From Okamejei kenojei (lineage: Eukaryota), in NCBI GenBank assembly GCA_035221665.1, contig CM069135.1, positions 29,202,001-29,266,000 of the forward strand: a DNA stretch of 64,000 nt. Direction: 5' to 3'. Within the stretch, counting starts at the first letter, position 1. Each line of letters starts with the position of its first letter. The notes under the pieces were generated by a model that was not told where the DNA came from, made no database searches, and saw nothing but the letters and a program-made list of their open reading frames with translations. Both the position numbers and the translations under genes were made by a program. Below, piece after piece: positions 9,255-62,300 of the stretch.

Positions 9255-9446
9255 CAAGGAACTGCAGATGTTGGTTTACAAAAAAAGATGCAAAGCGCTG
9301 GAGTAACTAAGCGTGACAAGCAGCATCCCTGGTGAACATGGAGAGGCGACACTTCGGGTTGGGAACCTTCCTGCAACATCACCTATCCATGTTCTCCAGT
9401 GATGCTACGTGACCTGCTGAGTTACTCCAGAATTTTGCATCTTTTT
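9255..9446. repeat. Penelope-derived palindromic repeat, central ribozyme cores partly deleted
   Basis: Arms GCTGGAGTAACT..GCAGCATC..TGG and its reverse complement; same family as 11715-11935. Confidence 0.7.
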
Positions 9447-11714
9447 AAAATGGAAATATTAGCCCTACCGGGAGCAGGAAAGTCACGTGGTCCAGAAGGA
9501 ACGTCGCTTGGACGTATCTCTCCCAAGAGATACTCATGGTCTCTGCAAGTGGTGGGCTTGGCAAGAAACACTGCTCCCAAACAGTCTGATCCAGGGTGCT
9601 GGCCTGGATTAAATGCTCAGACTCAATCCATAAAGGAATGGGAGAAGGAGAATCTCCGTGCTCCTCTTGCAATACCACCGATGCAGAGATACATGGAATT
9701 ACATCAGGCTGTACAAATCACTTCGCAACGTTTTGGACATGAAAAATAAATCTACTTGGGTACATGTAATTATTCTTTGTACATGATTCATTGTTGATTA
9801 TTTATAATTATTAGGCTTTATTAACAGCCTGTGCTTTTATTATTAATGTGAATGTTGAAGATCATTTGTTTATTGATGTACATTTTTCAATTCAATTAAA
9901 TCACTCTCAGTCTGAAATGTAGGCTAAACATCTGCACATACTGTATAGCATTTTAATTTATAAGGAGAAGTTGGGAATGCCTTGATTGTTTTCTGTGGGG
10001 CATTGGAGACCAAGGGGAGATAAGTTGTGAGAGGCATAAATAGGGTGGACAGTCAGAACCCTTTTTCCCAGGGTAAAAATGTCAAATGCCAAATGCCAAA
10101 GGTCACAGCCTTAAGGTGAAGGGTGGAGGAGAAAATTTAAAGGAGACATGCGAGGCATTTTTTTTTACACACAGAGAGTGGTTGGCAGAAGTGATGGTGA
10201 AAGCAGATAGGATAGTGACATTCATGGGGCATTTAGACAGGCACACAGTGAGTGGAGGGAGGGAATTCTCTGCCACAGAAGGCAGTGGAGGCCAATTCAC
10301 TGGATGTTTTCAAGAGAGAGTTAGATTTAGCTCTTAGGGCTAAAGGAATCAAGAGATATGGGGAAAAAGCAGGAACGGGGTGCTGATTTTAGATGATCAG
10401 CCATGATCATAGCTGACTCAAAGGGCCAAATGGCCTACTCCTGCAACTATTTTTCTTTTTTCTATGTATCATGTGCAAGAAGATGGGGTTAGTTTCATCT
10501 GGTATCATGGCCGGCACACAGATGGTGGGCCAAAGAGTCTGCTCCTATGATGCACTCTTCCATGATCCATGTTCCTAACCATTTGATGTACCGGCTATGC
10601 GCTGAGAAATGTGACACATCTAGAAACTCCTAACGGACTATAATATTCCATTACAGAGTACTTTCAAGCTTAAGTGCATCCACGTTCAAACATGTAGGTA
10701 AAAAATGTAATTATGTTCCTCTCAGGCAAAATGCATGTGTTCTGAAGGTAGTTATTACATCTAGGCCAATTGAATCTGGGAATTGAGCCTAAGGGTACAA
10801 TAAAGAGAATTAACACACCATTACAATGTTAACATAACTAGGGGATTCATGTGTTAAATACAGTTTTAATATGCCTATTAACTCAGCAGGCAGCTCTGTC
10901 AAGCCACAGGAGTTAGAATAAAATACTGCCCTTCTCACCTGTCACGTTGCTGGTACATTGTTATAATGCTGTTCAGATACAGTCCATTATCTTTATGGAC
11001 TTGTTATACAACAGTATTCATCTGGATGAGCAGCAGCACCAACACTACATCAATGAAAACTTGCTGTCATGATTCAGGTACAAAACTCCTTCAAGGCTGA
11101 TCCTTTGCATTCTTATACCCGGTTAGAGTCTTGACATAAGGTCATGTGTGATAGAAGCAGAATTCGGCCATTCGGCCCATCAAGCCTACTCCACCATTCA
11201 ATCATGGCTTATCTATCTCTCCCTCCCAACCCGATTCTCCTGCCTTTTCCCCATAGCCTCTGACACCTGTGGTAATCAAGAATCTATCTATTTCTGCCTT
11301 GAAAATATCCACTGACTTGGCCTCCACAGCCTTCGGTGGCGAAGAATTCCACAGATTCACCACCTTGTCTGCCGGGACCTCACATTGGATCATCGGGGTC
11401 TTGTGATTTTCCAGCTGCTGAATTGTGGCAACTATTTACTGGTGTGTGCTCCAGGCAAGGATGCGTCTTCAGTAAAGTAACGCTCAGTAAAAGCGGGGAA
11501 TAGGTAGTATGAGACTACCTATTCACCAAGGAGTCTCATATGTCTGATACTTATGGCCACATGCAAAGGTGACACCCCAAATAAATACATTTTCCATTTG
11601 TAAGTGCATGGTTGACACTGAAATGACATCACAAATCAATGCTGGTGTCATACTCACTGCTCTGGAAACTTAAAAAATGTTTTTTTTTACAAATTATTAT
11701 CACTTTATCGAGTC

Positions 11715-11935
11715 AGACACAAAATGCTGGAGTGACTCAGTGGGTAAGGCTGCGTCTCTGGAAAAAAGGAATAGGTGACGTTTCGGGTCGAGGCCCTTCA
11801 TCAGACTGATGAAGGATCCCGACCTGAGACGTCACCAATTCCTTTTCTCCAGAGATGCTGCACTTCCTGCTGAGTTACTCCAGCTTTTTGTGCCTATCTT
11901 CGGTGTAAACCAGCATCTGCAGTTCCTTCTTACAC
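11715..11935. repeat. Penelope-derived palindromic repeat with two back-to-back hammerhead-like cores
   Basis: Long inverted arms centred on ...CTTCATCAG-A-CTGATGAAG... Confidence 0.8.
11777..11804 (-). ncRNA. Minimal type I hammerhead ribozyme core (Penelope-associated)
   Basis: Minus strand CTGATGA A GGGCCTCGACCC GAAA CGTC: C3-A9 box, helix II, GAAA, GUC triplet. Confidence 0.65.
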
Positions 11936-12372: not shown

Positions 12373-13224
12373 TGGCCTAAGACTCAAGATATAAATTCAT
12401 TCAATGTCTTTTAAAAAATGGATTGGAGAGTAGTTTGTGTTCAAAGTTGTTGTGGGCAGCTAACAGGAGTCAAACAGTAATGCAGGTGGAGTCAGATAGG
12501 CTATTGTATGTAAGACAAGGAGATCTGACAGCGGGGGTGATTCCTTGCATTTTATTGTAAAAAGGATTGGAAAGGCTCAGCCAATTCTATTGATCTCATT
12601 GAAGCATGCAGCATTTTTGCTGGGCTTGAATGAAACACAGTGCTGGAGTAATTACGCAGGTGAGGCAACATCTGTGGAGGGAATGAATAGATGATGTTTC
12701 AGGTTGGAACCCTTCTTCAAACTCACCTTACTTGCCTGAAGAAAGGTCCTGATCCAAAAGATTACCTATGCACTTCCTCCATTGATGCTGCCTGACCTGC
12801 CGAGCTCCCCCAGCACTTTGTATTTTACTCAAGATTCCAGCATTTGCAGTTCCTTGTATCTCCTTTCTAATTGTCTTTAACAACTGAGATCCGGGCAGAA
12901 TGGTTTCCCTTGTTCGGGCGTTTAGTGCCAGCGTTAACTGTCTGGAAATAAGAGGTTGGCCATTGCAAATGGAAATGAGAAAATATTTCTTCACTCAGGT
13001 GGTACAGAATCTTAGGAATTCTCTGTCCAAGAGAGCTGTGGCATTCAGTCATTGAGTATTTTCAAGATAGAGACAGAAGATGTTTAGAAGTGGAGGGAAG
13101 TGAGGATGGTTTTGTACAGGAAAGTGGTGCTGAGGTGCATTGGCCACCATTATTGAATGGTGGAAAGGGCTCAGAGGGTTATTTTTCTGGTGTTCTTACA
13201 CGGAATAAGAATGAAATATCCTCA

Positions 13225-23871: not shown

Positions 23872-24351
23872 ATGTAGAAGATACACACAAAGTGCTGGAG
23901 TTACTCAGCGGGTGAGGCAGCATTTCTGGAGAAGAGGGATGGGTGATGTTCCAAGTCAGAACTATTCTTCAGACTGAAGGTAGATGGTGGGGAAGGGGAA
24001 AACTGGAAGTAGATCTGGCAATATATGAACCAAGGAAGGGTGGAGCCCATAATGACACATTGTTGGCTGGCGAAGAGGTGATAACAAAGGGATGCGATCA
24101 ATGGAACTAGTAGGATGGATATGATGGGGGGGGGAGGGGGGGGGGGGGGAAGAGAGGGAATACAAGGGTTACTTGAAATTAGAGAAATCAACGTTCATAT
24201 TGTTGGATTGTAAGCTGCCCAAGCGAAATATGAGATGCTATTCCTCCAATTTGCTTATGGCCTCACTCCGAAAGTGGAGGAGGCCCAGGACAGAAAGGTC
24301 AGTATGGGAATGGGAAGGGGAATTAAAACGTTTGGCAACCGGGAGATCAGT
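23872..24351 (-). mobile_element. Penelope-like element 3' end (GIY-YIG endonuclease C-terminus plus pseudo-LTR)
   Basis: Minus translation DLPVAKRFNSPSHSHTDLSVLGLLHFRSEAISKLEE*HLIFRLGSLQSNNMNVDFSNFK* followed by the repeat arm with a decayed CTGAAGA core. Confidence 0.8.
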
Positions 24352-25353
24352 TTTATTAACTACTATTTTATTTGATGGAAGATATTAACCTTCTATGTGT
24401 TTGGGGCGGGGAATGCTGAGAGTTACATTTCTTGATAATTGTAACTGGATTATGTTGAAGTAGACTTTCACTTTTCCAGCAGCTGTGTAACAAGCCTTTT
24501 CTATATATTTGTGTCTATTAGAAAGGCATAGATTGGAGTTAGAAGAAACGGGATTAAGTTTATTATTGCGATTTATACGTTAGGAAGCATTTTGTTTTGC
24601 TGGACCATTATTTCAGATTCAATGCTTGTGGCCAGAGCCATCAAGGTTCCGGTGACCACTGGGCATGTCTTGTCAATTGTCACAGCCACCCTCTGGTCCA
24701 CAAGCTTGGCTCCAACACCTCTCCTACCTGCATACAGATGGATAGACTGAAGGCAAGCATCGAGGACTGCCGAAACCAAACTCAGAACAATAAATAAATG
24801 TATTACACAACTCACTTCCATCTGCATCCAATAGAGAAAAAAAAAAGAATAAACCTTGTTGGGTTTTGCCATCTGTTGCGTATGACTTAATCCACGCTCC
24901 CCCTCCCCCCCCCACACACACACACACACCTCCCAACTTTTAGAAAGTGGTTTGTCTGTAGTACAGAAGCAGGGCTTATGTTGAGACATTGAGTGAGTAG
25001 CTCGCCAGCATCTGTTCCCATGCCAAGAATGCCTAACACTGGGGTGCATAGGTTTATGGTGAAAGGGACACGGTTTAAAGGGGATCTGAGGGGTAAACAT
25101 TTCATACAAACAGGACTTAGTATCTAGAATGAGCTGCCTGTGGAGGTGCAGGATGCAAGAACAGGGACAACATTGAAGAGGTATCTGGACAGGTACTTGA
25201 ATGAGTAAGAAATATAGAGTCAAGTCAAGTCAGGTCAAGTAACTTTTATTTCTATAACACATTTAAAAAACAACTCTCATTGGCCATAGTGCTTTATATT
25301 GGTGGAGGTACTAACGTTATACACCATTGGTTCATAGATTAAGTCCATACATA

Positions 25354-26961: not shown

Positions 26962-28364
26962 TAAATACATACACATAGACCTCCCTCAGAGGACGTCAAG
27001 AAAGGCTTGAGAGTAAAGATGAGTTTTAAATCTCGACTTAAAGGAGTCGATGGAGGGGGCAGTTCTGATGGGAAGAGGGGTGCTGTTCCACAGTCTAGGA
27101 GCTGCAACCGCAATGGCGCGGTCGCCTCTGAGCTTATGCCGCAGGACGTTCAATAACCCCAAGTCGGCCGATCTGAGGGACCTGGAGGTGGTGTGGTGGG
27201 TAAGCAGACTTTTGATGTAGGTGGGGGCAAGCCCGTTAAGGGATTTGTAGACATAAAGAAGGATCTTGAAATTTATTCAGAACCGCACAGGGAGCCAGTG
27301 GAGGGAGGCCAGAATCAGGGTGATGTGGTCCCTTTTTCGGGTGCCCATCAGGAGTCTCGCTGTGGCATTTTGGACCAGTTGCAGGGAAGATTGGCTGATG
27401 CCAATGTAAAGGGAGTTGCAGTAATCGACCTGGAGGAGATAAATGTGTGGATGATCTTTTCGAGGTCATCAAACTGGAGGAATTGTTTTATTTTAGCTAT
27501 CGTCCGAAGCTGGAAGAAGCTAGCTTTTACCACAGCATTGACTTGTTTGTCAAATTTCAATGCTGAATCAAATATCACGCCAAGGTTTTTGACGTGAGGT
27601 TTGAGTAATGGGGTAAGGCTTCTAAGGCTGCCTGCTATCATTTTGATTGAGTCCGAGGGGCCGAGAAGGATGACCTCAGACTTACTCTCATTTAGTCGGA
27701 GGAAGTTCTGGGCCATCCAACACTTTATATCCTCGAGGCAGTGGATAAGGTTAAGTAGATTTGATTAGAGAGGTGTGGAATTAATGAAGGTGATTGAGAT
27801 TAGTATAGATAGGCTTAGTATAGATAGGCATGATAGTCAGCATAGGCATAGTGGACCAAGGAGCTTGTTTCTAAGAGAGAGTTTCAAGAGAGAGTTAGAT
27901 TTAGCTCTTGGGGCTAAGGGAATCAAGGGATATGGGGTAAAAACCGGAACGGGATACTGATTTTGGATGATCAGCCATGCTCATATTGAATGGTGGTGCT
28001 GGCTTGAACGGCCGAATGGCCTACTCCTGCACCAATTTTCTGATATGTTTGCACATGTTTCTATGCCTCACAAGATGACCCTGGAATGCAAGGAGTAATC
28101 AGCTAGTAGAATATAGAAATGAGGAGCTGCAGATACTGGCTTACCAAAAAAAGACACAAAACTCAGCGGGTCAGGCAGCATCCCTGGAGAATGTGCATAG
28201 GTGATGTTTCAGGTTAGAGCCCTACTTCAGCAAGTCACTAGTCACTTGTGACTGCTAGTTCTCCAGGGATTCTTCCTGACCAGCTGAGTTCTCCAGGGAT
28301 GCTACTGTTTACAAAGTCACCAATTACCTGGAAAAGAGGCAAAAGGTCTGAGTGTCCTTGTGGA

Positions 28365-28580
28365 AACAATGAACTGCAGATGCTGGCTTACAAGAAAAAG
28401 ACACAAAGTGCTGGAGGAACTCAGTGGGTCAGGCAATTTCCCAGGGCACCATGGACAGGTGATGTTTCGGCTTGTGGCCCTTCTTCAGACTGAAGGAGTT
28501 GAGGGAAGAAAGCGAGTAAGGAAAGAAAGGTGAGGAGAAGGAGTGGAGCAAAAATTGGCAAGTGATAGGTGGATTGAAGT
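28365..28580 (-). repeat. Penelope pseudo-LTR fragment with hammerhead-like core
   Basis: Minus CTGAAGA AGGGCCACAAGCC GAAA CATC at ~28461-28488. Confidence 0.65.
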
Positions 28581-33516: not shown

Positions 33517-33990
33517 ACGGAAGAAGGGTCTCGACCCGAAACGTCACCCATTCCTTTTCTCCAGAGATGCTGCCTGTCCCTCTGAGTTACTACAACAATT
33601 TGCGTCTATCTTTGGTTTAAACCAGCATCTGCAGTTACTTCCTACATAAAACAGAGGAGTGTTTTCTATCACATCTATCACAAAGTCCACTGGTCTTAAA
33701 GAACTCTGTGGATTGTGCAATTTTTACAGTCACCAAGAAGCTGGAAAAGAGGCAAACAGTCTGAATATCCTTGCAGGAATAATGAACTGCAGATTCTGGT
33801 TTACAAAAAAAGATGCAAGGTGCTGGAGTAACTCATCATGTCAGGCCGCATTCCTGGAGAATGTGGATATGTGATATTTCAAGTCAGGATCCTGCTTCAG
33901 ATTGAAGAAGGGTCCTGCCCCAAAATGTTACCGACCCCTGTTCTCCAGGGATGCTGCCTGACCCACTGAGTTACTCCAGCATTTTCAGAG
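33517..33990. repeat. Cluster of Penelope pseudo-LTR repeats (single arm 33517-33650, palindrome 33780-33990)
   Basis: GAAGAAGGGTCTCGACCCGAAACGTCACC; inverted arms around CTTCAG-A-TTGAAG. Confidence 0.75.
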
Positions 33991-35867
33991 TTTCCCTTGC
34001 ATAAGAGGCGATTGTTCTTGAACAAGGTCTGAACAGGCTTTGACAGCAGAGTCTTTTATTGTAAGAAGTCTCTTAGCAGATTTTACAGCAGAAGCAAAAC
34101 ATGGAATAAGATGAGGCATGAAAAATCTGTTACAGATTGCTGTCAGTCCAGTCCATCTTCAAGTCGATGATTTAATCAAAATTAACACAGAGGGAAATAC
34201 AGCTCAATACGGCTCGCAGAAACTATTATATTCTTGCCCTTTCCTGTGCAGACATGAAAGATTGACCTTTTGTTTTATGTACAGGTGGGAATACTTTGCA
34301 AGAAAAACAGGTGTGCTTAGGAACTAGAAACCACGCTGTGTGGCATCACAATCCCTTGATAAACCACGTGGTTGCAACGTTTCTTTGTGGTCGTACTTGG
34401 CTCTACAATAAACAAGTTATCTCGCAGCTGTGAAAATTGTGACCCCCACAATGTCATTCAAATTAAAAACCCAAGGAAAATTAAAAAAAAAATCCTTTGA
34501 AAGTAAAACATGAATCATACTGCTTTTGTTTGGACAGTTCAGAATTATGTACAGCTAGGTATACAACTCCTTCCTTTAATGTAGCAACCTTTTCATTTAA
34601 TCAAATTAAAGATTGGCTTTATTTCCAGGAAGTACCAAGTTTGAGGCTTAAGTTGTTTATTGATTCCTTCGTGTTAAACCTGCTTTCCACCTCTCTTGCT
34701 TTGACATTTTTGTCTTCCCTTTAAGGTAAAAATAATGTCCCATCTCCAAGTGGGACAGCACTAATGCCACAGTGTTATAATCTCTTATCAATAGTCAGGG
34801 CTTTTTAGTGGCTTTTGGTGGCTTTGGGCCTCTTACAGTTTGTAGATCACTGTGCTTAAGAGGAACTGAGAAATGTTTAAGATACTACAGTAGTTGCAAG
34901 TGGACAGAAACAAAGACAGGTTTTCAGTCAAACTGTTGCCAGTGTCGGTCTTCTTTATTTTACAAAAGTACACTGCACATACCCACACACATATTCACAA
35001 GACTGATAAGATAATGAATATTTAACATGACACAAATCACCCAATTTGGTACGCAGTTGTTAAAGGTACAGTTACCATTATACACACTACAACAGTGGAG
35101 CAAGACTTGGGGTCATGGCGTCACTCCAAAGACCTGGGTTTGATCCTGGCAGCAGGCAATGTCCATGTGGAGTTTGCAAGTTCTCCCAGTGTCTTCCTGT
35201 TTCTCTTGGATGCTCCGGTTTCCCCCAATATATCAGTTTGGCTACTGTAAGTCACCCCTCAGAGTGGCTAATTGCACCAAAGAAACAAAAGGGAGTTGAT
35301 AGGAATCTGTGAGAGAGCAGACATTTGCAGGTGTAAAGGGAGATAAGGAAGAAGTGATTGGGATAATGGAATTGTATCCCTGAGAGATGGTATGTATCTG
35401 ATCTCCCAAGGGCACGACACATTATGCAGTGCTATGCACACTGTACCCATTAATCAATATGACCTTTAAATCCATTGCTTTGTAGCTATAAATGCCATAG
35501 TCAAGATTTTCATTCCCCCAAATGCACTTTATTCATTATGTGTATAAATGGGACAGGTAATTATCTTCATGCATTCTGCGAAACAATTCAATGCATTCAC
35601 TTACGATGAGTCAATGCCGCTCACATTTCCACCTTAAACACTACATTCATGCAGCCTTTGAGAGGTTGTTACACAGTGTCCAGTGACAGCAGGATCCAGA
35701 CTATGATGCCTCCCCACAGTGTCTTTGTGGTGGCCACACTGAGCTTCAGCCATCCTCCAGCACGCATTCCCGCACCATAAAGTGCTCTCGGCGATATTTG
35801 CCTAAGGACATCTCCTTCCACTGGAAGACCAACAAATTTCAGGTAGACCCTGGGGTAAAAAAAAGTT

Positions 35868-37709: not shown

Positions 37710-37950
37710 ATAGGAAGGAACTGCAGATGCTGGTTTAAACCAAATATAAACATAAAATGCCAGAGTAACTCAGCGGGATAGGCAGCATCTCTGGATAGAA
37801 GGTCGAGTCCCTTCTTCAGACATGTTGGCTGAAGGAACTATTCAATCCTTCTGGAGAAGTGTCCCGACCTGAAATGCCACCTATCCATTTTCTCCAGAGA
37901 TGCTGCCTGACTGACCTGACCCGCTTAGTTACTCCACATATTGTGTCTCT
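37710..37950. repeat. Penelope-derived palindromic repeat, decayed
   Basis: GAAGGAACTGCAGATGCTGG arm and inverted arm. Confidence 0.7.
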
Positions 37951-40434
37951 CCTGGTGATTGAGATGCAGGCAAGGCACTAATTGCTGCTCATGGGTTGTA
38001 TTCATGTGCAGCGAGCCTGTGGCTGATCGTTGGTCGTCATGCGAACAGAGGTCTGATATCGTCAATGGTTAGTGCTGGTTAAAGGCAGACTGGGCCTCGT
38101 TAAATGGCTAAGGCATTGAAGCTGTAAGAAGTGGGTTGTCGATGGTATCTGTTTGAGCACTTGCTGAATGTGGCCGATGCGACGGCCTGCAAAGTTGTAC
38201 TTCCTCGGGATGCCCTCTGGAGGGGGCGGAATCAGCCGCAGTCCATGAAGATGCCTGAGTTCACGTGAAAACCACTCAAGGTGACGTGCGTGTAGTCAAC
38301 AGCTCCTTGCACCATGGGGACTCTTGCGAACCAAGCAAACTTCAGTGACTACAGGCGGTATGACCATCTGGCCTCTTCTCCTCTACGTTTCCAGGCCAGA
38401 TGAGGAACCCTGACCCAAAACATCAACTGTCCATTTCCCTCCACAGCTGCTGCCTGATTGTATACATTTCGGAATAGTTCCCTCCAGTTTATATCACCTA
38501 TCCGAATACGTTCTACCAAAATGCAACACTTCATGGTTATTAGTGTTATCATGGTTATCATGGTTAAATGCAACACTTCATGGTTTCACACAGAGAGTGG
38601 TGAATCTGTGGAATTCTCTGCCACAGAAGGTAGTTGAGGCCAGTTCGTTGGCCATATTTAAGAGGGAGTTGGATGTGGCCCCTGTGGCTAAAGGGATCAG
38701 GGGGTATGGCGAGAAGGCAGGTACAGGATACTGAGTTGGATGATCAGCCATGATCATATTGAATGGCGGTGCAGGCTCGAAGGGCCGAATGGCCTGCTCC
38801 TGCACCTAATTTCTATGTTTCTATGTTTCTATGTTAGCATTAACTTTCATCTCTAATCTTGCTGCCCATTCATTTATAGATTTCGGGACTGAGTGCAGGG
38901 AAAATGCAATCATTGCACCCTTGTTCAAATTGTTTTGCAGAAGCTGCCGCCAAAAATATTTCCCTGAAGATTATGCTTCTCACCCACATGTCCATTCCTT
39001 CTTCTGGCATCAACCATATTTCCTACTTCCCATCATTCTAAATTCTCAAGAGGCAAACGTTGTGGGCTGTCTCTGCCTGCAAGCAATAAACTGCAGCACC
39101 ACCCTTCAACTCACCAGAAAAAAAACCTTAATCCCACTCACACTCCTTTGAGACTAGTTTTGGCTGAGCATAAAAGGGTTCAGAGCGCAGGTACAAATAT
39201 AGGCAACACCTGGAGCATGTACAGTAATTCATCACTGAGCTTGGAAGTAATTTGTGATGTTTTTGAAAGGTTCTTGTGGAAGGCTTTTCATTCGTTTAAT
39301 GTGTGTTCAGCTTTGTGAGATTTAAAGGTTTGACTTTGATAACCAAGAATAATATCGCTGCCACAAATTAAAAGCTCAACTAGTGTGCTCTACATCTGTG
39401 GATTGTTAGTCCAAGTGTCCAAACACCATGAATGAGACGGGGCTGGCAAGGAGACCATTGGATGCCCTGTGCAGAACCTCCTTTGCCAGCAAGAGGATGT
39501 TGGCTTGCACTTGAATAAAATGCTATGTGGAGTCACAGAGAGATGCAGCAGGAAAATAGGCCCTTCGGCCCACCGAGCACATGCCGATCATTAACCGCCC
39601 ATTCACGCAATTCCGACAATAATCCCATATTTTGTTCTCACCGCATTCCCATCATCTTCCTCAGATTCTACCTCTCACCTACACTCTAGGGGATAACTCA
39701 CAGTGACCAATTATCCTACCAACTGGCAAGTCTTTGGGATGCGGGAGAAAACCGGAGCACCTGGGGAATTTAATGTGTAGTGGCCATTTAGCTTGTTTTG
39801 CATGTCATTGATGATGGCATGTGTCCTTAAATTTGAGACTGCCCGTTATGTTGTGTATGGGATTTATGATGTGATTGTGGGCGTGTTTGGAGCTAAGATG
39901 CTTGCGCAGAAGTTTTGATTTTAGTGTAGTTTTGTAGGTTAACCCTTCGACCATGTGAGACCAAAGGAGATCATGCGAGGTCTAAAGGAGATCATGCGAG
40001 ATGTAAAGGAGACCATGCAAAGTGTGACTGGGACACGTGGAGTTTTTAATGTTTAAAGCAACAAGCTGGAATTCGATGAAGATTGCAGTAACAAGTCTCG
40101 GAGAAATTTGGATGTATCTCACTGTTTTCTATCAACCATAAAGCATTTATTAATCTAAAGACTGTGTGTTGAAGCCATATCTGCGAAGAAGCTCTGAAGG
40201 TCTCTGTGAGTAAGCTGGCATGCGTATTGAAGATATTCCGCTTATCCCTGCTCATCCATTTAGCAGCTAGAGAGTTAATTTCTCGAACGATGTAAAAATC
40301 TTCCGCTACACATGCGGCCACAGGGAGAACGTGTAAACTCTAGATTTGAGGTCACGATTTAATATCTCCTGTGTTGTGAGGCAGCAGCTCTATTGGGTGT
40401 GCCACCATGCTGCTCAATTTTTCACACTATCCTG

Positions 40435-41854: not shown

Positions 41855-42334
41855 TTAGTCATAGTGTCACAGAGTGAAGCAGTGTGGAAACAGGCCCTTC
41901 AGCCCAACTTGCCCACAGGCAGATGAGATTAGTTTAACGGGATTATGTTACAGCAGAAACATTGTATGCAAAAAGGCCCATTCCTGTGCTGTACTATTCT
42001 GTGTTCTAGGTTCTATCCTGTATCCACTTAAAATCCCAGTATTCCATGACAAAATTCTGAAGTTAAATGTTATCTCATGACTTATATTTGTAACAATAGA
42101 TGAGTTATTTATTAATAACGTACTTGCAACCTCTGCATCAGTAATTTGGCATTTGGATGGAACTGTCAGACTTCTGTCCTTAATTAGTTCCCTCTTGAGC
42201 AGTGGGCAGTCTATATTCCGCTGCGATTATGCAAGTAGAAAGTATTGCACCCTTGCAGCATATTGCAGGTTACTCAAACTCAATCGATTTCTGGGAACCA
42301 CGACATCTTCCCTCCTTAACATCCACAGCATCGT

Positions 42335-42362
42335 CTGAAGAAGGGTTCCAACCCGAAACGTC
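42335..42362 (+). ncRNA. Minimal type I hammerhead ribozyme core (Penelope-associated)
   Basis: CTGAAGA A GGGT TCCA ACCC GAAA CGTC at the start of a pseudo-LTR arm (to ~42462). Confidence 0.65.
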
Positions 42363-43303
42363 ACCCATCCTTTTTCTCCATAGATGCTGCCTGACACACT
42401 GAGTTACTCCAGCACGTTGTGATTATCTTCGGTATAAACCAGCATCTGCAGTTCCTTCCTTAACAATTGTTTGATTTTCCTGATGAATCAGAAAAATAAT
42501 GAGCAGGAGCAGGAATAGATTACTCGGCCTTTCAAGCCTGCTCCACCAAGTCAGAACTGATTTTCTACCTCAGGGTACAGGGTATCTAACTGTAGTATAC
42601 TCATATCCCTTGATTCCTTTAAAGGCCAGAAATCTATTGATCTCCGCTTTGATTCAACATAACAGTCGAGCCTCCCCAGCATAGGGGATTCCTAAAATTC
42701 ATTGCCATCTAGAACTCCAAAGATCCACTGCCTTCTGGAATTCTGGAACTCCAAATAGCCACCATTTTCTATGCTCGCAAAGCTCCACCGCCCTCTGGAA
42801 TTAGCAAAGGTTTCAATTAGATCCCCTTTCATTTTACTAAACTCTAGAGAATGCAGACCTAACGGGACACAGAGACTCTATTATCTGTGTAACCCTACTT
42901 GTGGATTTTCTCTGCACTGACGCAATGAACAGTATGCATTTCTTTAGTGTAGGATTTGAAAAATGGTGCACAAACACCAGGCCGATATATATATAAGAAG
43001 TTGCACCAACTTCTTTATTTCAGTACTCAAACCTTCTTGTAATTAAGACCAATATACCCTTTGCCTTCCGGATCACTAGCTTCACCTGCATGTTGACTTT
43101 TAACCTACAAGGATTGACTTGTCTCTCTGAGCATCAACACTACCCAATCCATCACCATTTGAAAAATGCTCATGGTTTTTTGTTTGGTGCACCAAAGTAC
43201 TGTATTTGTATTGACATTTTTCCACATCTGCCCAGTTCTGACATGTTCACGGAGTTTGTCCATATCCCCATGAATCTCCTTTATACCTTTCTTCCTACAC
43301 ATA

Positions 43304-43507
43304 CAGTGACTCCAACTCTCCCGCTTTCGGCGAGAGATCGCCCGCTGAAAGGGCATTTTCGCAAAATCTCTCGCTCTCCCGCTTGAGATATAATTTCTCC
43401 CGCCCGGGAGGGAGAAATTATATCACAAGCGGGAGAGCGGGAGATTTTGCGAAAATGCCCTTTCAGCGGGCGATCTCCCGCCGAAAGCGGGAGAGTTGGA
43501 GTCACTG
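43304..43507. mobile_element. 204-bp near-perfect palindromic MITE
   Basis: CAGTGACTCCAACTCTCCCG...CGGGAGAGTTGGAGTCACTG; CACATA direct repeat at 43298-43303 and 43508-43513. Confidence 0.9.
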
Positions 43508-44640
43508 CACATAATCCCTCCTGGGACTGTGCCATCAGATTCATTGGCTGCTTCCTTAAGCATCGCCCTTAATGGGTTCCATTTGTGACTGCAGTCTGTC
43601 AATGTGATAACCATTTAGATGCCAGCATGTGCCCATCATGAACTTTATGCAGGTTGCTCAGTGTAAGCACATCAAGGGAGGGCAGACTTTCCATAATCAC
43701 TTTCATTTTTTGATGATTAGATTACTTTCAGGCCATGCATTACCATAGCTCATAGAACGTAAAGAAGACCAACACAGGAACAGGCCAAACGTGATGCCAA
43801 GCTAAGCTACCCTCATCTGCATGCACAAGAAACATATACCACCATTCCCTGCACATCCGTGTGCCCATCTGAAAATCTCTTAAATGCCACTATTGTATCT
43901 GCCTCCACCATCAATCCTGGCAGTGGGTTCCAGGCACCCATCATCCTCTGTGTAAAACAATAGTGCCCTGCACATTTATTTGAAACTTTGCCCTTTCATC
44001 TTAAAAATATGTCTTCCAGTCTTTGCCATTTCTAGCCTGGGAAAAAGGTTCTATTGAAGCCTCTCATAACTTGACATACTTCAGTCAGGTCTCCAACTCA
44101 GCCTCCAACACTCCAGAGAAATTTTGCTTTGCGCAGCACTGATTTTGCTAAGTGTTATCATTTTGTGTACTATATCTACATCACATAAGTAATATGCTGT
44201 TCTGCCACTTTTTCTTTGCGACTGGTGAGTCATTTGTCAGGATTATATATGTTATCGGGAAATTAAACACCAATCGTCTGTTGAAATCGTGAAGAATATC
44301 AACAGTCACCTGATATTATGTAGAAGGTCATGTTAGAATTCTTGGATTTCAATATCATTTGTGATAAAAACCTGCCTCTCAACAGTTTATTAATGAAATA
44401 TCCTGGCATTTCCTCCATGAGGTGCAGTAACATGACACAAAGATTATTGTAAATTTGCTTCCACATCACATTGTTTAATGGGTCTTTGTCAATCAGTAGA
44501 TTTATTCATGGATTATAAATATATTGACAAATATGATGAATAACTAAGGCATATTTAGAACAATCAGAATTATTGTTTGGGCAGAAAAAGCTGGAGTAAC
44601 TCATCGCGACAGGCAACATCTCTGGAGAGAAGGAATGGGT

Positions 44641-44668
44641 GACGTTTCGGGTCGAGACCCTTCTTCAG
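44641..44668 (-). ncRNA. Minimal type I hammerhead ribozyme core (Penelope-associated)
   Basis: Minus CTGAAGA A GGGT CTCG ACCC GAAA CGTC within a Penelope 3' repeat (~44590-44721, resuming ~46262-46385). Confidence 0.65.
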
Positions 44669-44721
44669 ATTGAAAGTCACGGGAAAGGGAAATGAGAGAT
44701 ATAGACAAAGATGTAGAGATA

Positions 44722-46261: not shown

Positions 46262-46759
46262 GATATATATAAAACAATGAATGATAGATATGCAAAAAAG
46301 TAACGGTGATAAAGGAAAGGCCATTGTTATCTGTTTATTGGGTGAAAATGAGAAGCTGGCGCGACTTGGGAGGGGTGGAGAGAGAGGGACTTCAGATATG
46401 TGCCACGCTGACCAATTGATTCTTCTGCTGCTTCCCTTGTACAATGGACAGTTGTCTCCTGTCATGCATTCAGCGGTGGGGTGAAGTATTATAGTCACTA
46501 CAGGTTTTGCTTCGATGTACTAAAGTTAGTTTAGAGTCATAGAGCATGGAAACAGGCCCTTGGCACAACTCGCCGACATTGATCAAGGTGACCATGAGAG
46601 TTAATCCCATTTTCCCGCTTTTGTCACATAACCCTGTAAACCTTTCCTATTCATGTACCTGTCCAGGTGTCTTTTTAATATTGTATTGCACCTGCCTCAC
46701 CCACTTTAGCTGGCAGCTCATTCCATACACCCACCACCCTCTGTGTGAAAAAGTTGATG

Positions 46760-48472
46760 GGTGAACGGAAGGAGCAATCACTCTAATAGGATTAGAAACA
46801 TGCCCTCACTCAAATGGGATTATATTATAAACCACCTAAAACCAGCAGAAGAAAGTGGATCAGATATGTAGACAGATTATGGAAGGATGCAAGGACAACA
46901 GTGAAGGAACTTGTTTTAGTGGATGACTTTAACTTCCACAATATTGACTGGGACTTACTCAGAGTAAGAGGATTGGACGGGGCAGAATTTGTTTCCAAGT
47001 AGGTTTCCTTAAACAGTATTTGGATAGTCCAACTTGAGGAGGGACCTTACTGGACATTGTATTGGCGAACAACCCTGGCCAGATGACTGGTGTTACGGTG
47101 TTACTGGTTGAAGAGCATTTTGGAGATAGTGACCACATTCTAGAACTTTTAAGATTGTTTGGAATAGGGATAGGTCTGGGGAGGACTGCCGAAGGAAGGA
47201 ACTGTTTATACGGAAGATAGGCACAAAGTGCTGGAATAACTCAGTTTTTCTCCAGAGATGCTGCCTGACCCGCTGAGTTACTCCAGCACTATCTTCGGCT
47301 GTCGGAAGATACTCTATATAGACCAGCTACAGAAAAGGGTGATAAATGGAGTTTAATGTAAGGGGAAAGTATACTGTTAATGGCAAGACCCTTATTTGTA
47401 CCTAAGATTATTTGTACCCATGTGCTGTGTGCATTCCTGTGTATGTCTGTTTCATTTTGTGATTTTAACTACCTGCTCTGGTCTGTACAGCACTTTGGTC
47501 AACGTGGTTTGATTTTAAATGTGTCTTTATAAATAAATTTGATTTGATTTGATTTTAACAGCCTTGATGTGCAGAACGATTTAGGAATCCAAATTCATAA
47601 CTCACTGAAGGTGGCAGCACAAGTAGATAGGGTGGTAAAGAAGGCATATGGAATGCTTGCCTTTATTGTAAAGGCTCTGTCCCACGATGCGAGTTTACCC
47701 AAGAGCTCTCCCGAGTTTAAAAAAAAAATCAAACTCGTGGTAAGTACGTAGAATGCACGTAGCGGGTACGTCGGAGCTTGTGGATGTCTCGTGGTGGCTC
47801 GTAATGCTAACGGCAGGTACTCGGGAAACGCGGAAACGCGTGAAGTTTTTTCACTAGTGTGAAAAATTTCCAAGAGTAAAAAAATACTCGTACCATGAGT
47901 TTGATTTTTTTTGGGTGAACTCACATCGTGGGACAGGGGCTTTAGGAGTATTGAATATATGAGTCAGGAAGTCATGGTGCAGCCCAATAGGACTTTGGTT
48001 AGGCTGCTTTTAAAATATTGCGCGCAGTTCTGGTCGCCCCATTATAGGAGGATGTGGAGGCTTTGGAGAGGTGCGGTGGAGTTGACCAGAATGTTGCCTG
48101 GATTAGGGGGTTTCAGCTACAAGGAGAAGTTGGATAAACTTGGATTGTTTCCGCTGCAATGTCGGAGATTGAGGGAGAAGTGTATAAAATGATATGAGGC
48201 ATAGGTAAGGTAGACACAACCTTGTTCCCAGGATAGAAACGTCCAACGCTAGATAGGTATAAGGTGAGAGGAGGAAAGTGTAATAGAGATGTGCAGGGCA
48301 GGTTTTTCACACAGTGCCTGGAATGCATTGCCAAGGGTGGTGGTGGACGTAAGTATAATAGTGGTGTTTAAGAGGCTTTTAGATAGGCACATGCAAGTGT
48401 AAGGAAATAAGGGATATGGCACGAAAATTGTGGGCCGAGGGGCCATTCCTGTGCTGTACTGTTCTATGTTCT
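46760..48472 (+). mobile_element. Fragmented CR1 LINE with nested insertions
   Basis: APE piece GLYYKPP..DDFNFHNIDW; RT C-terminal NDLGIQIHNSLKVAAQVDRVVKKAYG, YCAQFWSPHY; (TTCTATG) tail. Confidence 0.75.
47672..47941. mobile_element. PIF/Harbinger-like MITE
   Basis: TIR AGGCTCTGTCCCACGATGCGAGTT / AACTCACATCGTGGGACAGGGGCT; TWA flanks (TAA left, TTA right); interrupts CR1 at LAFI|.SIEY. Confidence 0.8.
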
Positions 48473-52290: not shown

Positions 52291-55200
52291 ACAAAACAAA
52301 TCTTAAAGTTGCCTTAATCAATCATGAACAAGTATGAAGAATGGCTCCGACTCGAAATGTCAACCTACTCCTTTTCTCCAGAGATGCTGCCTGAGTTGCT
52401 CCAGCACTTTGTGTCTATCTGAATAAATCATTATTGTATTTTTTCCACTTTAATGGTGTTGAACTCAAATTGCAGCTGCCCAGGAGATGTGGGATATCAT
52501 TTAAAGCATGGGGCAAGTGCAAAAAAACAAAAAAAAACAGGAGTGGGTGAGAGAGAGGGGCAATGAGGGTGAGAGGGAGGGCTGGCAGTGGCACATAGAT
52601 CCCCAGTCTCATGGAGTGAGTCCCTGTGACAGAGTGTGTCCCCAGCTCCTCGAACCAGAAGCAGCTTCTGGACCCCGATCCTGATCCATGCCCATTCACA
52701 GAGGCCTGATCTTCACAGTTGCCTCCCTCGGTGCTGCAACGCTGCTATGATTCTAATCCGACATCGCTACGCTCTTGCCTCGTGTGATCACTGAAGGGCA
52801 GAAGCAGCAAATAAAAATACAGTAAAATGGCGCTGATTCCCGGAAATCTCAAACTGATCTTAAGCCATGAGCCCAACGCTAGAATTCTATCCTTTACGAC
52901 ATTATGATTAATAGGAAGAATGTCCTTGCAGCCTGTAAACGAAGTACGTTTTCAACCTGTAACATCTGTGAAGGTAATTTAGAGGATGTTTCTTTCATTT
53001 TCTTTACTTTTTGACCTTCTTGGTCCCTCTTGCATAACATTTCATTTCCTGACCACAAGGACTGCAGGAAGCCTTGCCTCCTGGCAACATCACTCTCGGA
53101 CAGCCTGCCAAGAAGTATGCGTGAGAGGTGTGGATTGATGCCCTATGCAGACCTCCGTCTTGAAGCTCCTTGCTTCCAATTGCTCCCTCCCTTGGCAGCT
53201 TGGCTTTGATCACCAGCTCTGCAGGTGGGGGAAACATAACTGTTAAGATTTTGCCACATCACCCCACGCAGCAGAGAGAACATGACTTCATCACCTTTGA
53301 GCACTGAAGAATCCTGGCTTACATGCTATCTTTGAAGAAAACTGTCTATAATAATATCACATTTTCTTCTTGAAAGAAGCACTGACTTTCATTGTTGAAA
53401 TCTGGATGAATTAGCTGAATTCCAAAGTCTGGTTCTTTATTCAAACCGTATTCGTTGTTACTCGTGGTAGTTTTACAACCTAAAGGTTTTCTTATGAAAG
53501 GTGAATGCTACCCAGAGAATCATTGGAAAATGCTGCAAGCGGGAAAATGGTGTTGAGTATTCCTGCAGATTATATTGTGCAGAGACACCCACCTCTGCTC
53601 TTTCACTCAAGAAGAACGACATATTAACATTTTTGGATTCTTGTTGTTAAATTCTAATTAATATAACAGTGCTTCACAGGAATAGATTCTTCAGCCCATG
53701 ATGTCTGTGTCGAGCATGATGCCAATTTAAACTAATCCCATCTGCCTGCACAGAGTCTGCAAACTACCATTCCAGTCTGTCTAAATTCCTCTTAAACTTG
53801 CTATTGTATCTGCTTCGACCACCTCCCGTGCAGTGCGTTCCAGGCAACTACCACCCTCTGTGTAAAAATGTGCCTCCTAAAACTCCTTTCAACTCTCCCC
53901 CTTTCACCTTAAAGCTATGGCGTCTATTAATTGACGTTTCCACTTTAAATGAATAAGACTGACTGTTCACCCTGTCTTATGCCTCTCATAGGTTTAGGTA
54001 TGATAAATATTTTATTTAATTTCTAACTTGATCAGAGTGAATTAAGAATGTTATGGATTTATAAAATATATTGTAGAATAGAGTAAGACTACTGAATTTG
54101 CATCTGAGCCTACAAATCTGCAGATTAGAACAGGGATTAGAGAAAGTTGCTGGGGTGAATATCGCTGGCTGCATAGAGTTGCTCTGGTCTTGAGGTAAAA
54201 CTACACGTAATCTCAGACTTTGCATATGTTGCCGATCATGCGAGTTTGAGATCAAGTGACTGTTGGCACCCCATCTCACTGACACTCTGATACTATATCA
54301 AAACAAACCTGTAAGGATTGAGATTCTGTGCTTACAGATAACAGGCAAAGCAGAATGATAAGAGTAATTAAATAATGTGGATATGGGGAGAAAGCAGGAA
54401 TGGGGTGCTGGTTTTGGATGATCAGCCATGATCATATTGAATGGCGGTGCTGGCTCGAAGGGGCCGAATGGCCTACTCTTGCACCTCTTTTCTATGTTTC
54501 TATTTTTCTAAATTATCTTATTTTCTGTTCATAGATTATTTAACTATTTCTAGTGCTTTTGTGTTTTTAATTAACTAAATGAGAAGTTTATTAGTTTATT
54601 CACTCACTTGCTCTTTATAAATATCTCATACGTTTTAAGGAGGAATCCCAAAAACTCCATGGCATTGAACACAACGCATTGGCGTAACTTAGGGAATTGG
54701 CCAGCATTTTGGAGGATATGGACAAGCAACCTTTTATGGGTTGGGACCATTCTTCAAACCCTTCCCCTACAAGGCTCCATGGCATTGTTGGATCTGAGCA
54801 TGGATAGAGTAGATTGTAGGAAAGGAGAGGTAGAGGGCGTTGATTAGGATAAGGGGGCAAGAGTTTTAAAAGGGATCGGAGTAGGTATCTTTTCACCAAG
54901 AGAGTGTTTGAAATCTGGAACATGCTGCTGAGGGGGAATTAAAAATTCATACGTGTCTTAATGTGAACTTGAATGACCAAGACATAGAGGACTACAGATC
55001 AAGGGCTGTCCTGCCGATTGCTAACCATTTTAACTCCCCTTTCCATTCCCATACTGACTGCAGCTAAAAGCTGCAACATGACATCCTGGCTCTTATACAC
55101 AATGTCTCAACAGGTGAAGACTTATACCATCCACCTTCTTTCCCACTCCATCTACCTGTGTTGCCAATTTCAGCGAGCGATCGACTTGAACCCCCAAATC

Positions 55201-57833: not shown

Positions 57834-58571
57834 TCATGACCCTCTCCTTCGACCCCTTCCTCCTCTTCGTTCTCTCATGGGGCAAGCTTTGCTCCAATGC
57901 CACGTCTCTCCACAGACATAACACTGATCTGGCCTAACTGTTCTGTAACTTCTCCAGTGGAACAGAGGGAAAACAGGCTCCCGAACAGGCATGTCCATGA
58001 GATAATTGGGTGGGATCCAAGCCTCAAACTCTTCTTCTTTTGATTTAACTTCCAATTTTGTATCAATTCCACTGGTCCCTGGAACTAATTTGTGAGGCAG
58101 TAAAAACAGCCTTTTCTCTTTTGTTACCCCCCTCACTAAGGCTTCATATGTAGGGTACCCTAAAGTTGTCAAGAATTTAGCGTATTCCTTAGGGGTGATC
58201 AATCGTTTCACTGTCTCCCGTAAGCTTCGAGAGTCAGGGTGAGTTTCATACAGATTGAGTTTCAAATATTCCCCAAATGAAGTAGATAAATGGTTTCCAT
58301 CTGGATTTTTATTCATGGTCGTTGTTGAACTGGGCTCCGATGCAGTGGGGGTGTCTGTAGCCCGGGGATGGTTTGCACCTACTGTACTATCCAAATCAAA
58401 ATTAGGTGTAGGCACCTTCCTAACAGGGAATTGCCTATGGGGAATTTGTTCTGCTTCCATGATACTGGTGATATCAGGATTGGCTATCTTATAGCCCGTT
58501 CTTGTCTCACCCTCAGAAGCGCTGCTTCCTTTGCTAAAGGGATCCCTATATTTTGTAAGTGATTCCTTCAA
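57834..58571 (-). pseudogene. Gag-like ORF fragment with CCHC zinc knuckle
   Basis: CYVCGETWHWSKAC matches CX2CX4HX4C, followed by R/G-rich RERRGGRGRRRG; an upstream fragment is likely at 58857-59126. Confidence 0.72.
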
Positions 58572-60969
58572 TTCTCCTGCTGTCTATTTAATTTGTTCTG
58601 GTACTGGCTTACAAGGAACCTTATTCCTTGCTCCCTGACTCACTACACTATCCTTTGCCAGTGAAGCAATCAGGGCCAGAGAATCCTTTTCCAATGTCTC
58701 CGTTCCAGGCTTAAATTTAGTGTGTGGAGTCAACGATGCCTTTGACTCCACTCGAGCGCCCTGTTCACAAGCTGCACAAGGTACCTTACGACTAGAAACA
58801 TGAGAGGGTTGAGAGGAAGGCTGTGATTCTATACCAAAATAATCTGCCCATCTTTTTCAATACGGGGCTCCCTTCCCTTCAAGGTCCACACTAACCACCG
58901 CGTTCTTGCTAAATTTAATTGTCGTCGGGGCCAATTCCCCTTTAAGAGTCTCTGCTCTTCCCTGCTCCTGCTTTTGTTCTTTAATATCTTTCTCTTTCTT
59001 TTTAGAAATACCCAGAGAAGGACCAGCTCCAGCTTCCTCCAGCTCTATCCCCAGTGTTGAGGCTGCCTTCCTCCAATTTGTTAGCCTAAAAACTTCTTTG
59101 TTCACTTTCCTCTCCGTATAATACATTCTCCATACTTCTATAAGTTTGTTTCCTTATTCACTATCCCCTCACTGCCGGATAATTTTCTCTATGTACCTTA
59201 TCCCCGTCACTGACTCCAGGCCACCCATCGGCCATAATTCACTTCCTAACTCTTTGTTTGACTTTCCCAAAAAATGTCATAACCTCTTGGCTTTTTGAGG
59301 GAATTCATTACATATTATTTGTAATGGGCTTTCAGAAGTGGTAGTTATATCCTTCTCCAGGCTATCCCCATGTCTTTGCACAATAGAAACAATAGAGGTA
59401 CGTTTCTGAGTCACTCACACCTCTTCAATAATTCACTCCTCCCTTTCAGTCTCCGAGGTTACCAAGATCGCTCCTGGACAATAGCCAACGTCTCCAAAAC
59501 AGTCTCACACCTTTCTCACAAAATAACACAGTCAATCTTTCCAATCTACTATTCAATCGCTATTCAATCGTTCTGTTCATTTGCTCTATTCAATCGCGCA
59601 CCCAACTCTCTTATCAGTTCCTTCTCATTCACAACCACTCATCCAACTTGTAAACAGTTCCAGAAGAATCCTCAGTCTCCCAGATTAAGGTGCTTAATAT
59701 TCAAATATACTTTTTTAGCAGCAGTCTCTCACACTCAAAATACTTTAATTTAACGTAGACAAATAAACCTAAACCACGCAAGCAAAACTATACCCAAGCA
59801 AGAAACTATAGCACCTATTATAAGTAAACAGAAACACACTCCAATATAAACTACAAGTATTCACTTATTATCACAAGTAAATCACACTCTATTTTAATTC
59901 CTCCTGGTGTTGTGCTTGGTCAACGGAACAATCCCTTCCCCAAAGCAATCGATCTGAAGGATACGAACCCTGATCGAACAACCATGAATCGGACTCCAAT
60001 AATAATAATACGATCCCAACTAAATTCTTATATATTCACTTTAACCCACTTTTACCCCAGTTTTCTAATACCCCAAATCTTTAAGCAATACACAATCAGT
60101 ACAATGAAACAATTCACGATCTTAACACACTCCAAATGTATTTTACAAGCATCAAAGTATTTATACAAAATTCAACTCTGAAAGAAATATGTACACATGA
60201 AATTTATTAAATTCTACCACCGGCGATGCAATACACAACACACACAATACAGCAATAACAGCAATCTTTAATATACAGTTTCCAAAAGCAAATCACAATA
60301 TTTCAATCCCGCTTTGCACTTCTATCAACCAGTAAACCTCTCCCTCCGCTACAGGCAAATACTATTATAACTTTTAAGAAACATTTAGACAGGTGCATGG
60401 ATAGGATAGATTTAGAGGGATATGGGCCAAAGGCAGGCAGGTGGAACTAGTGTTGATGCTAGTCAGTGTGGCCAAATTGGGCCGAAGGGCCTGTTTTCAT
60501 ACTGTATGACTATGACTCTAGGGATGGGGACGAGGTCACAATGGAGAAATGTCAACTTTAAAGTAAGTGGGTGTGATTGTATTAACTGGGTAATGTCATA
60601 GCATTCACAAACATTCTGGAATTACATTTTTCCCTGCTGGAGAATTCCATCATTGTATAGTAATCACTTCTATGACCCAGTTATAGTCTGGTAAAGCAAC
60701 CTTCATATAAACCCAGATGTTTAGTTTATATATATGATGAACTTGCAAGCCTTGTTCAATTACCAGTTAACTTGGGTTTTTTTCCCTCCAGAATTTGTTA
60801 TGTTTAAAAACCAATTCATTTTAATTTAGTTTGCCGGATTGAACAACAATGTGCTCAAATTATTTTCTGAATTGTCATAACATTTTAAATATCTCGGATG
60901 AAACATTACCTTGTCAGATGGCAAATTCAGGGCTCCTTGTTGCAATTTAAGATTTTGCAAACCTGACAA

Positions 60970-61807: not shown

Positions 61808-62300
61808 CAAAGAATTGCAGATGCTCTATTACAAAAAAAAAGACACAAAGTGCTGGAGGAACTCAGCGGGTTAGGAGGTATCTCTGGAAGACAATCATAG
61901 GCGATGTTTCAGATCGAGACCCTTCTGCAGACTGATTATAGTAGGATGGGGGGAGGAAAGTGGAAAGTGGGGGGGGAGGTGGGGGAAAGCTGAGGAAAAG
62001 AGGTGGGGCGGGACAAGGCTTGGCAAGTAACAGGTAGATGTGGGTGAGGAGGGGTTTTGATGAGCAGATGGATGGACAAAGGCCAGAGATGCAAAGAAGA
62101 CAAAAGACTGTAATAAGAGTGAAGCCAGAGGAAGGGATAAAGATGGAAGATGCCAGGGAGAAGGAGAGAAGGAATGGATGATGTTTTGGGTCGAGGCCCT
62201 TCTTTGGACTACACTCTTCATTCTCTAGAGATGCTGGCTGTCCGGCTGAGTTACTCCAGCATTTTGTGTCCATCTTCACCAGTATCTGCAGTTCCTACAC
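61808..62300. repeat. Penelope-derived repeat with tandem and inverted pseudo-LTR pieces
   Basis: GAATTGCAGATGCT..GACACAAAGTGCTGGAG arm, two decayed ribozyme cores, inverted arm at ~62220-62300. Confidence 0.7.

Follow-up and report, generated by a model that had tools for sequence, protein, structure and literature searches.

Minimal hammerhead motifs in the genome of the cartilaginous fish Okamejei kenojei very probably belong to the pseudo-LTR of a Neptune-type Penelope-like retrotransposon

The stretch of Okamejei kenojei DNA analysed in this study (contig CM069135.1 of assembly GCA_035221665.1, positions 29,202,001 to 29,266,000; 64,000 nucleotides, hereafter the window) carries two nearly identical motifs resembling minimal hammerhead ribozymes, raising the questions of which element they belong to and whether their dispersed copies cut RNA. 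An initial annotation, made from the letters alone, had described two cores differing in the helix II loop alone, with helix III cut down to an ACGU palindrome, an extra A after A9 and a weak helix I. The description holds letter for letter at both sites: the 28-mers at 42335-42362 (+) and 44641-44668 (-) match the pattern, their sole difference is the helix II loop (TCCA vs. CTCG), and helix I is indeed short in both (Table 1). The catalytic core CUGANGA...GAAA...UH and the G10.1-C11.1 pair are present in the two cores, as are the palindromic 15.2-16.2 positions (ACGU), the missing loop 3 and the extra nucleotide after A9, the last of which recurs in 20 of 20 descriptor hits sampled genome-wide. 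Within the window the annotated pattern gave two exact matches and seven at no more than three mismatches, and a minimal-hammerhead descriptor was passed by the two named cores only; neither search gave a match in 100 dinucleotide shuffles. An Rfam search of the window, in which the covariance model has a closed helix III, returned no hammerhead family at E<=1. Judged by their letters, the motifs are minimal type I, dimer-type hammerheads with an extra A.

Because they are encoded on opposite strands, the two named cores are not dimer partners within one transcript; a single transcript would instead hold one ribozyme and one antisense copy, and the sense/antisense duplex of the two is predicted at -124.5 kcal/mol. 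The ACGU:ACGU duplex is predicted to be modestly favourable (-3.1 kcal/mol), and the best predicted fold of the + copy (42335-42362) sequesters the core. Within 42337-42376, a pyrimidine run past the cleavage site is complementary to the purine run of the core; the predicted alternative fold that pairs the two would turn the ribozyme off.

Each named core forms the 5' end of a ~130-nt interspersed repeat, and a profile of this repeat matches the window 26 times; the initial annotation had counted more than ten intact or decayed copies in 64 kb. The copies are collected in Table 1. For the copy at 42333..42465, a possible 9-nt target duplication (42313-42321 / 42457-42465) is ambiguous because it overlaps the element end. 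The copy holding the core at 44641 runs on into the 3' UTR of the parent element discussed below, the next piece of which (46267..46386) is set apart from it by ~1.5 kb of other sequence. In the inverted pair at 11710..11929, the core at 11777-11804 (-) keeps every catalytic letter with a helix II of 3 bp.

Table 1. Hammerhead cores, repeat copies and element remnants in the window, named according to the pseudo-LTR reading argued for in the text.
Feature	Position	Strand	Remarks
Intact minimal hammerhead core	42335..42362	+	CUGAAGA, extra A, 4-bp helix II, GAAA, ACGU palindrome, GUC cleavage triplet; helix I 2 bp
Intact minimal hammerhead core	44641..44668	-	Majority sequence of the family; helix I 1 bp
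Solo pseudo-LTR fragment with 30-nt 'tail'	42333..42465	+	Begins 2 nt before C3
Pseudo-LTR fragment, untailed, plus ~50 nt of upstream 3' UTR of the element	44582..44721	-	blastn to L237 full-length unit
Next upstream piece of the element's 3' UTR	46267..46386	-	Unit positions 3795-3918
Broken remnant, GIY-YIG endonuclease C-terminus of the element	24172..24366	-	tblastn, 62-65% aa identity, E 1e-21
Decayed pseudo-LTR/hammerhead copy	23873..23976	-	~200 nt downstream of the endonuclease remnant 24172..24366
Back-to-back inverted pair	11710..11929	both	11710-11808 - (short end), 11802-11929 + (with tail)
Tailed copy, core inactivated	33518..33641	+	U4 to G in core 33518-33545
Back-to-back inverted pair, decayed	33781..33997	both	Profile match
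Back-to-back inverted pair, decayed	9256..9454	both	Profile match
Back-to-back inverted pair, decayed	12629..12855	both	Profile match
Three decayed copies	28122..28492	both	28122-28230 -, 28258-28296 +, 28368-28492 -
Back-to-back inverted pair, decayed	37714..37956	both	Profile match
Partial copy, decayed	38397..38457	+	Profile match
Back-to-back pair, truncated downstream of core	47202..47292	both	Profile match
Decayed copy	52331..52422	+	Profile match
Decayed copy	54666..54759	-	Profile match
Decayed copies	61809..62296	both	61809-61934 -, 62163-62210 -, 62217-62296 +

The window also holds other sequences. A near-perfect 102-bp palindrome (96%, no spacer) at 43304-43507 is MITE-like; its Rfam miRNA matches fall below gathering scores and it had no match in a 600-kb genome sample. 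Terminal inverted repeats of 186 nt at 25389-26927 flank a 234-aa frame (26039-26743, +) that we take to resemble a Tc1/mariner transposase. The long frames at 291-1802 and 63085-63834 presumably resemble DIRS-type retroelement proteins, and an AT-rich stretch at 18928-22525 (GC 25-33%) carries on its minus strand what we assume to be pieces of an L1-like endonuclease/reverse transcriptase frame. A 249-aa frame with a CCHC zinc-knuckle at 57834-58583 is presumably a gag-like remnant. No host exons were evident among the window's open reading frames of at least 130 aa.

The initial annotation did not connect the motifs with a mobile element. The repeat is very probably the pseudo-LTR of a Neptune-type Penelope-like retrotransposon, copied as short 5'-truncated insertions, with cleavage that would be weak, in dimers or protein-aided, and with dispersed copies that are likely inert. 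The association of such motifs with Penelope-like elements has been published (PMC4209133). Within the window itself, the endonuclease remnant at 24172-24366 followed by the decayed copy at 23873-23976 links the repeat to the element. Elsewhere in the genome, a reverse transcriptase/GIY-YIG frame ends 110-220 nt upstream of the match at two of the ten exact-match loci examined first; the core is located 100-240 nt past the stop of this open reading frame, and in nine of the best 12 endonuclease loci found with the element protein as query it lies within ~120 nt of the stop. Twenty long-ORF loci were fetched, 19 of them with a qualifying frame; in each of the 19 the repeat follows downstream of that frame, on its strand. 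In three of these 19 (L229, L237 and L240) the repeat stands at both ends, 3.9-4.4 kb apart, with L237 being a 99.5% identical tandem with a unit of 3,962 bp and an inverted truncated copy upstream. The second core of the tandems lies ~165 nt before the start codon (in L237, the start codon is ~165 nt after C3). An ATG 22 nt past the cleavage site was rejected as a conserved start, the frames differing between subfamilies.

The protein of the element is consistent with this assignment. The 769-aa frame of locus L227 is unbroken and contains DKG, YIDD, a CX4CxxC linker and GIY-YIG, and Pfam RVT_1 and GIY-YIG match the element protein with scores under the curated cut-offs; the closest protein relatives are from skates, rays and sharks. 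The traits of endonuclease-bearing (EN+) Penelope elements are also present, namely tandem or partial-tandem pseudo-LTRs, an inverted 5'-truncated neighbour and a 30-40-bp tail. The linker of L227 (CNRKKCNTC) fits the CX2-5CxxC before GIY-YIG that marks Neptune and Nematis and is absent from Penelope and Poseidon according to PMC8557442, which places the element with Neptune/Nematis; a Poseidon-like identity was dropped on the same motif. The linker and the host group together suggest Neptune rather than Nematis. The L060 family, top of the genome Pfam GIY-YIG ranking, was rejected as the source of the repeat, which it does not match. This locus (G000:C43:13000-22999) represents a second, very young Neptune-type family with a 759-aa frame and a ~6.3-kb tandem unit, 28% identical to the repeat's element; its matches lie near the starts of contigs C11, C14, C17, C43 and C111, often within 40 kb of the contig start, and neither the repeat profile nor a simple hammerhead pattern matched it.

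The loop-less helix III, the extra A and cleavage as dimers are the published Penelope signature, so the class of motif is already known. The minimal hammerheads of Penelope-like elements, reported by Cervera and de la Pena (2014, PMC4209133) and by Lunse et al. (as cited in PMC6765202), lack loop 3, have palindromic 15.2-16.2 positions and an extra base between 9 and 10.1, and occur in the repeats of fish Xena, Poseidon and Neptune elements, mostly as dispersed singles; their monomers were inactive and their dimers weak. The motif described here shares with them the type I core, the G10.1-C11.1 pair, the pseudo-LTR position and the dispersed single copies. In contrast to the many variable families reported there, one sequence dominates here, helix II has only 4 bp and helix I only 2 bp (as also in D. 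virilis), and the host is a cartilaginous fish, of which the available text of PMC4209133 names none. A second comparison is the anole Poseidon element PAc (Frangieh et al. 2024, PMC11167929), whose ribozyme cleaved only with protein and was dispensable for insertion, and whose reverse transcription begins at two internal sites that define the tail. In both systems the repeat carries a hammerhead, 3' ends fall at two internal points spaced 30-40 nt, insertion proceeds from uncleaved RNA and no RNA-seq ends lie at the cleavage site. Unlike PAc, whose start codon is at helix II, the present element has its start codon ~165 nt downstream of C3; additionally, its protein has the Neptune/Nematis CX4CxxC linker, and its 5' ends cluster at the ribozyme edge, for which the available text of PMC11167929 describes no counterpart.

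The scale of the family distinguishes it further. With an intact paired core defined as all catalytic letters plus a paired helix II, the 2.76-Gb genome holds 80,003 (68,043 with U-A, 11,795 with U-G and 165 with C-G at pair 10.4-11.4), and a further 1,579 cores have a C.A mismatch at that pair; one exact 31-mer of the repeat occurs 13,437 times, with none in a reversed control. A sample of sixty 10-kb stretches on a fixed grid (600 kb in total) yielded 251 copies, against none in a reversed control, and 20 cores intact by the descriptor; these numbers extrapolate to ~1.15 million copies and ~92,000 intact cores, totals that are rough since the grid skips small contigs and chromosome ends. Compared with the printed counts that were found, 4,000 in coelacanth and 9,000 in Xenopus (PMC4209133), the number of intact cores is about ten times higher. 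A literature search covering few subscription papers found none on hammerhead counts in cartilaginous fish, and the searchable supplementary files of PMC4209133 contained no shark or skate terms. Minisatellites at L006, L007 and L188-L192 are made of a ~54-nt segment that lies past the ribozyme in the repeat (model positions ~37-98) and does not include the core.

The large number of copies allows the manner of insertion to be read from their ends. Copies have two 3' end points, at ~95 and ~128 nt, and solo copies are flanked by 11-25-bp target duplications. Among 80 close neighbours in the 600-kb sample, 51 are back-to-back inversions and 18 are direct tandems, and 36 of 42 classifiable back-to-back pairs combine one tailed with one untailed arm (expected 21, p=1e-6), which fits priming at two sites on opposite target strands. 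Only six of 251 copies begin at model positions 30-36 around the cleavage site, with ~9 expected from neighbouring positions; this absence of an excess argues that the templates were uncleaved. At several 5' junctions (L140, L154, L159, L160, L162, L086 and L097), untemplated purine-rich bases, often several, stand between target duplication and element. Splicing was rejected as the origin of the 5' ends, with no spliced copies joining the ORF end to the core against 5,678 unspliced ORF ends and no common upstream exon. In the proposed mechanism, the element protein would prime reverse transcription at two internal sites, as shown for anole PAc, often on both target strands, yielding back-to-back pairs with one tailed and one untailed arm, and copying would run through the uncleaved ribozyme, stopping preferentially just 5' of it. 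In a master transcript, two cores ~4 kb apart would swap strands, with ACGU:ACGU as a 4-bp helix III, and cleavage is likely weak, in dimers or protein-aided, in transcripts of tandem masters.

Conservation was considered separately for inserted copies and for the masters. Of the 251 sampled copies, 119 span the model; in these, divergence is 7.5% at non-CpG core letters and 8.4% at downstream non-diagnostic sites (p=0.55), and 24-31% at the core CpGs (C11.1-G12 and C15.2-G16.2). The share of copies in which the 11 non-CpG core letters are all unchanged is 43.7%, and random sets of downstream letters give 40.8% (34.5-47.9%). Inserted copies therefore decay neutrally. Among subfamilies, a second allele above 12% occurs at none of 17 non-CpG core and helix II sites vs. 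16 of 50 downstream sites (p=0.007; for the core alone 0 of 11, p=0.052) and at both helix II loop sites. Where subfamilies do differ within the ribozyme, the substitution either preserves a base pair or is an allowed one (A11.4 to G and A1.1 to G, each opposite U, and C17 to U). The subfamily clusters were built on downstream positions, which makes Fisher tests on those clusters circular, and such tests were not used. Decay of the core at the pace of its flanks even among young subfamilies, which the initial annotation had named, together with a lack of cleavage, as refuting its reading, is thus found among copies and not among subfamilies, between which the core is invariant.

Within the genome, helix changes are one-sided and pair-keeping only, in a family whose helix I has 1-2 bp: a compensatory U-A to C-G change at 10.4-11.4 is no commoner (165) than point decay predicts (C.A 1,579 vs. 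68,043). Metagenome contigs (10 of 64 parts scanned) provided 124 loci in 103 distinct contexts, 102 of which were used, one being too short. At pairs left free by the search pattern, covariation was seen at 10.3-11.3 (93 of 102), 10.4-11.4 (76 of 102), 2.1-1.1 (96 of 102) and 2.2-1.2 (93 of 102), with shuffles giving ~40-45, although these rows include related families and the counts overstate independence. H17 is not G in 96 of 102 contexts, and 17 of the 124 loci match Penelope proteins (reversed control 0). Combined, the results argue that the minimal hammerhead architecture is a real, selected RNA fold. Core and helix II are invariant between subfamilies and the same architecture covaries in unrelated sequences, indicating that selection acts on master elements and not on dispersed copies. 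Selection on masters would thereby maintain the core, and CpG methylation decay after insertion would strike G12 and the helix III palindrome first. The helix I of the family (2 bp) is shorter than in most related metagenome motifs (3-4 bp); together with the core-sequestering fold of the + copy, this leaves room for a ribozyme that has lost catalysis and is retained in some other role.

One such role was considered for the clustering of 5' ends, for which the pseudo-LTR explanation gives no reason and on which a literature search covering few subscription papers found nothing. Approximately half of the copies reaching the core end no more than 8 nt upstream of it. In the youngest subfamily, the loss per nt is 2.7% along 9 nt within the core (counts of 32,288 to 25,144), 7.9% along the 8 nt before C3 (25,144 to 13,052) and 1.1% along the next 9 nt upstream (13,052 to 11,787). 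Of 142 sampled copies reaching the core start, 108 lack the upstream UTR and begin at or near AGT, keeping A, G and T at -3 to -1 in 62-79% and having random letters beyond -4. Among copies holding the start-codon region and reaching the core, nine of 17 end between +4 and -7 (a set from 30 of 521 loci examined, with two pairs sharing an insertion and one copy scored by eye). It is possible, though improbable, that the motif is kept in masters mainly as DNA, overlapping an internal RNA polymerase II core promoter with RNA starting at the A three bases before C3, and that the short copies are for the most part run-off cDNAs whose priming took place in the 5' repeat. The confinement of the steep loss to the 8 nt before C3 and the many copies stopping at the core edge favour this. 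With that A as +1, moreover, the DNA holds an exact Initiator (YYANWYY/TCAKTY), an exact CGANC (Bridge part I) at +18-22, nine of 12 MTE letters at +18 (the top score among 139 offsets, with a chance of 0.003 per site) and five of six DPE letters in register, with consensus letters taken from PMC4581360 (Table 1) and PMC8384218. There are also precedents: the D. virilis Penelope repeat holds a TATA-less internal promoter (PMC2377424), and in the trypanosome LINE L1Tc one 5' sequence is both internal promoter and ribozyme (Pr77/L1TcRz, PMC3383444), although there the ribozyme is HDV-like and its dual role experimentally shown, whereas a promoter role for the present hammerhead would follow from its letters.

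Several observations weigh against a promoter. There is no clean cap G, the base before AGT being C in 27,125, A in 2,449, G in 2,143 and T in 1,214 copies; junctions often have several untemplated purines, the ends spread over ~8 nt, and all three two-repeat elements (L229, L237 and L240) extend 25-380 nt upstream. The 9/12 MTE score is reached at 45 of 3,950 unit positions, and GAAACG alone resembles MTE; the TCAGT and loop letters are not kept in unrelated metagenome cores, and RNA starts show no pile-up in one raw run (X24). Ends would cluster in the same way if reverse transcriptase stopped, or a fold-back formed, at the TCAG-N-CTGA mini-palindrome. A promoter would be compatible with the pseudo-LTR explanation, to which it would add a second role. 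The fuller version, in which the hammerhead DNA would double as core promoter, with the Initiator falling on the 5' strand of helix I and Bridge/MTE on the loop and stem of helix II, RNA would start with the ribozyme, and internal priming in the 5' repeat would mass-produce SINE-like run-off copies of ~100-130 nt, is slightly more doubtful still.

Far less probable is that the tens of thousands of intact dispersed cores form a working reservoir cutting host transcripts through trans or tandem dimers. The 80,003 intact paired cores, the modestly favourable ACGU duplex and the abundance of the family in polyA RNA (13,231 reads in ~6% of run X24) would suit such a role. However, the core is not conserved over its flanks after insertion, two same-strand intact cores occur in only three of the sixty sampled 10-kb stretches, published monomers did not cleave and dimers were weak (PMC4209133), and eight of nine Xenopus dimers showed no cleavage (bioRxiv 10.64898/2026.07.22.740005). 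The X24 reads are equal on both strands, 99% run into unlike flanks and their ends are nowhere concentrated, which together suggest passive transcription; RNA ends did not pile up at the cleavage site in the ~6% of the run that was read, a weak test in a fragmented library, and few reads are 99% alike, so X24 may come from another species (related or the same organism). The very large reservoir proposed initially is thus borne out as a count of motifs and not as working ribozymes, given neutral decay, few same-strand partners and no cleavage-site excess. The dispersed copies are likely inert passengers, or inactive relics.

Retrozymes, which a 2026 preprint (bioRxiv 10.64898/2026.07.22.740005) links to Penelope repeats with one chondrichthyan included, resemble the repeat in being non-coding and derived from Penelope repeats with a type I hammerhead (see also PMC7229834). 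That the repeat is itself a non-LTR retrozyme, a non-autonomous tandem unit circularising by self-cleavage, is nevertheless hardly credible: it is short and occasional direct tandems occur (18 of 80 close neighbours), but retrozymes are head-to-tail units with a ribozyme in each, whereas the copies here are mostly solo or inverted and truncated (a back-to-back arrangement in 51 of 80 neighbours), begin elsewhere than at the cleavage site and run colinearly with the end of the autonomous element, and the 600-kb sample contained no head-to-tail unit-length arrays running from cleavage site to cleavage site.

With the repeat read as the pseudo-LTR of a Neptune-type element, what this study adds to a known class of motif is scale and statistics, the intact cores being numerous enough for a mechanism to be read from insertion ends. 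These ends indicate uncleaved templates, inverted pairs arising from two priming sites and a copying stop at the 5' edge of the ribozyme. If the promoter-ribozyme reading were true, the ~1 million insertions would be its product and the ~80,000 intact cores would be promoter-ribozyme cassettes, an expansion of a ribozyme motif larger than any other found on record for a vertebrate, and the conservation of the motif would be accounted for though insertion needs no cleavage. What Penelope hammerheads do is still described as unclear (PMC8557442); the young, 99.5% identical tandem L237 and the near-intact open reading frames of this family make their role directly testable.
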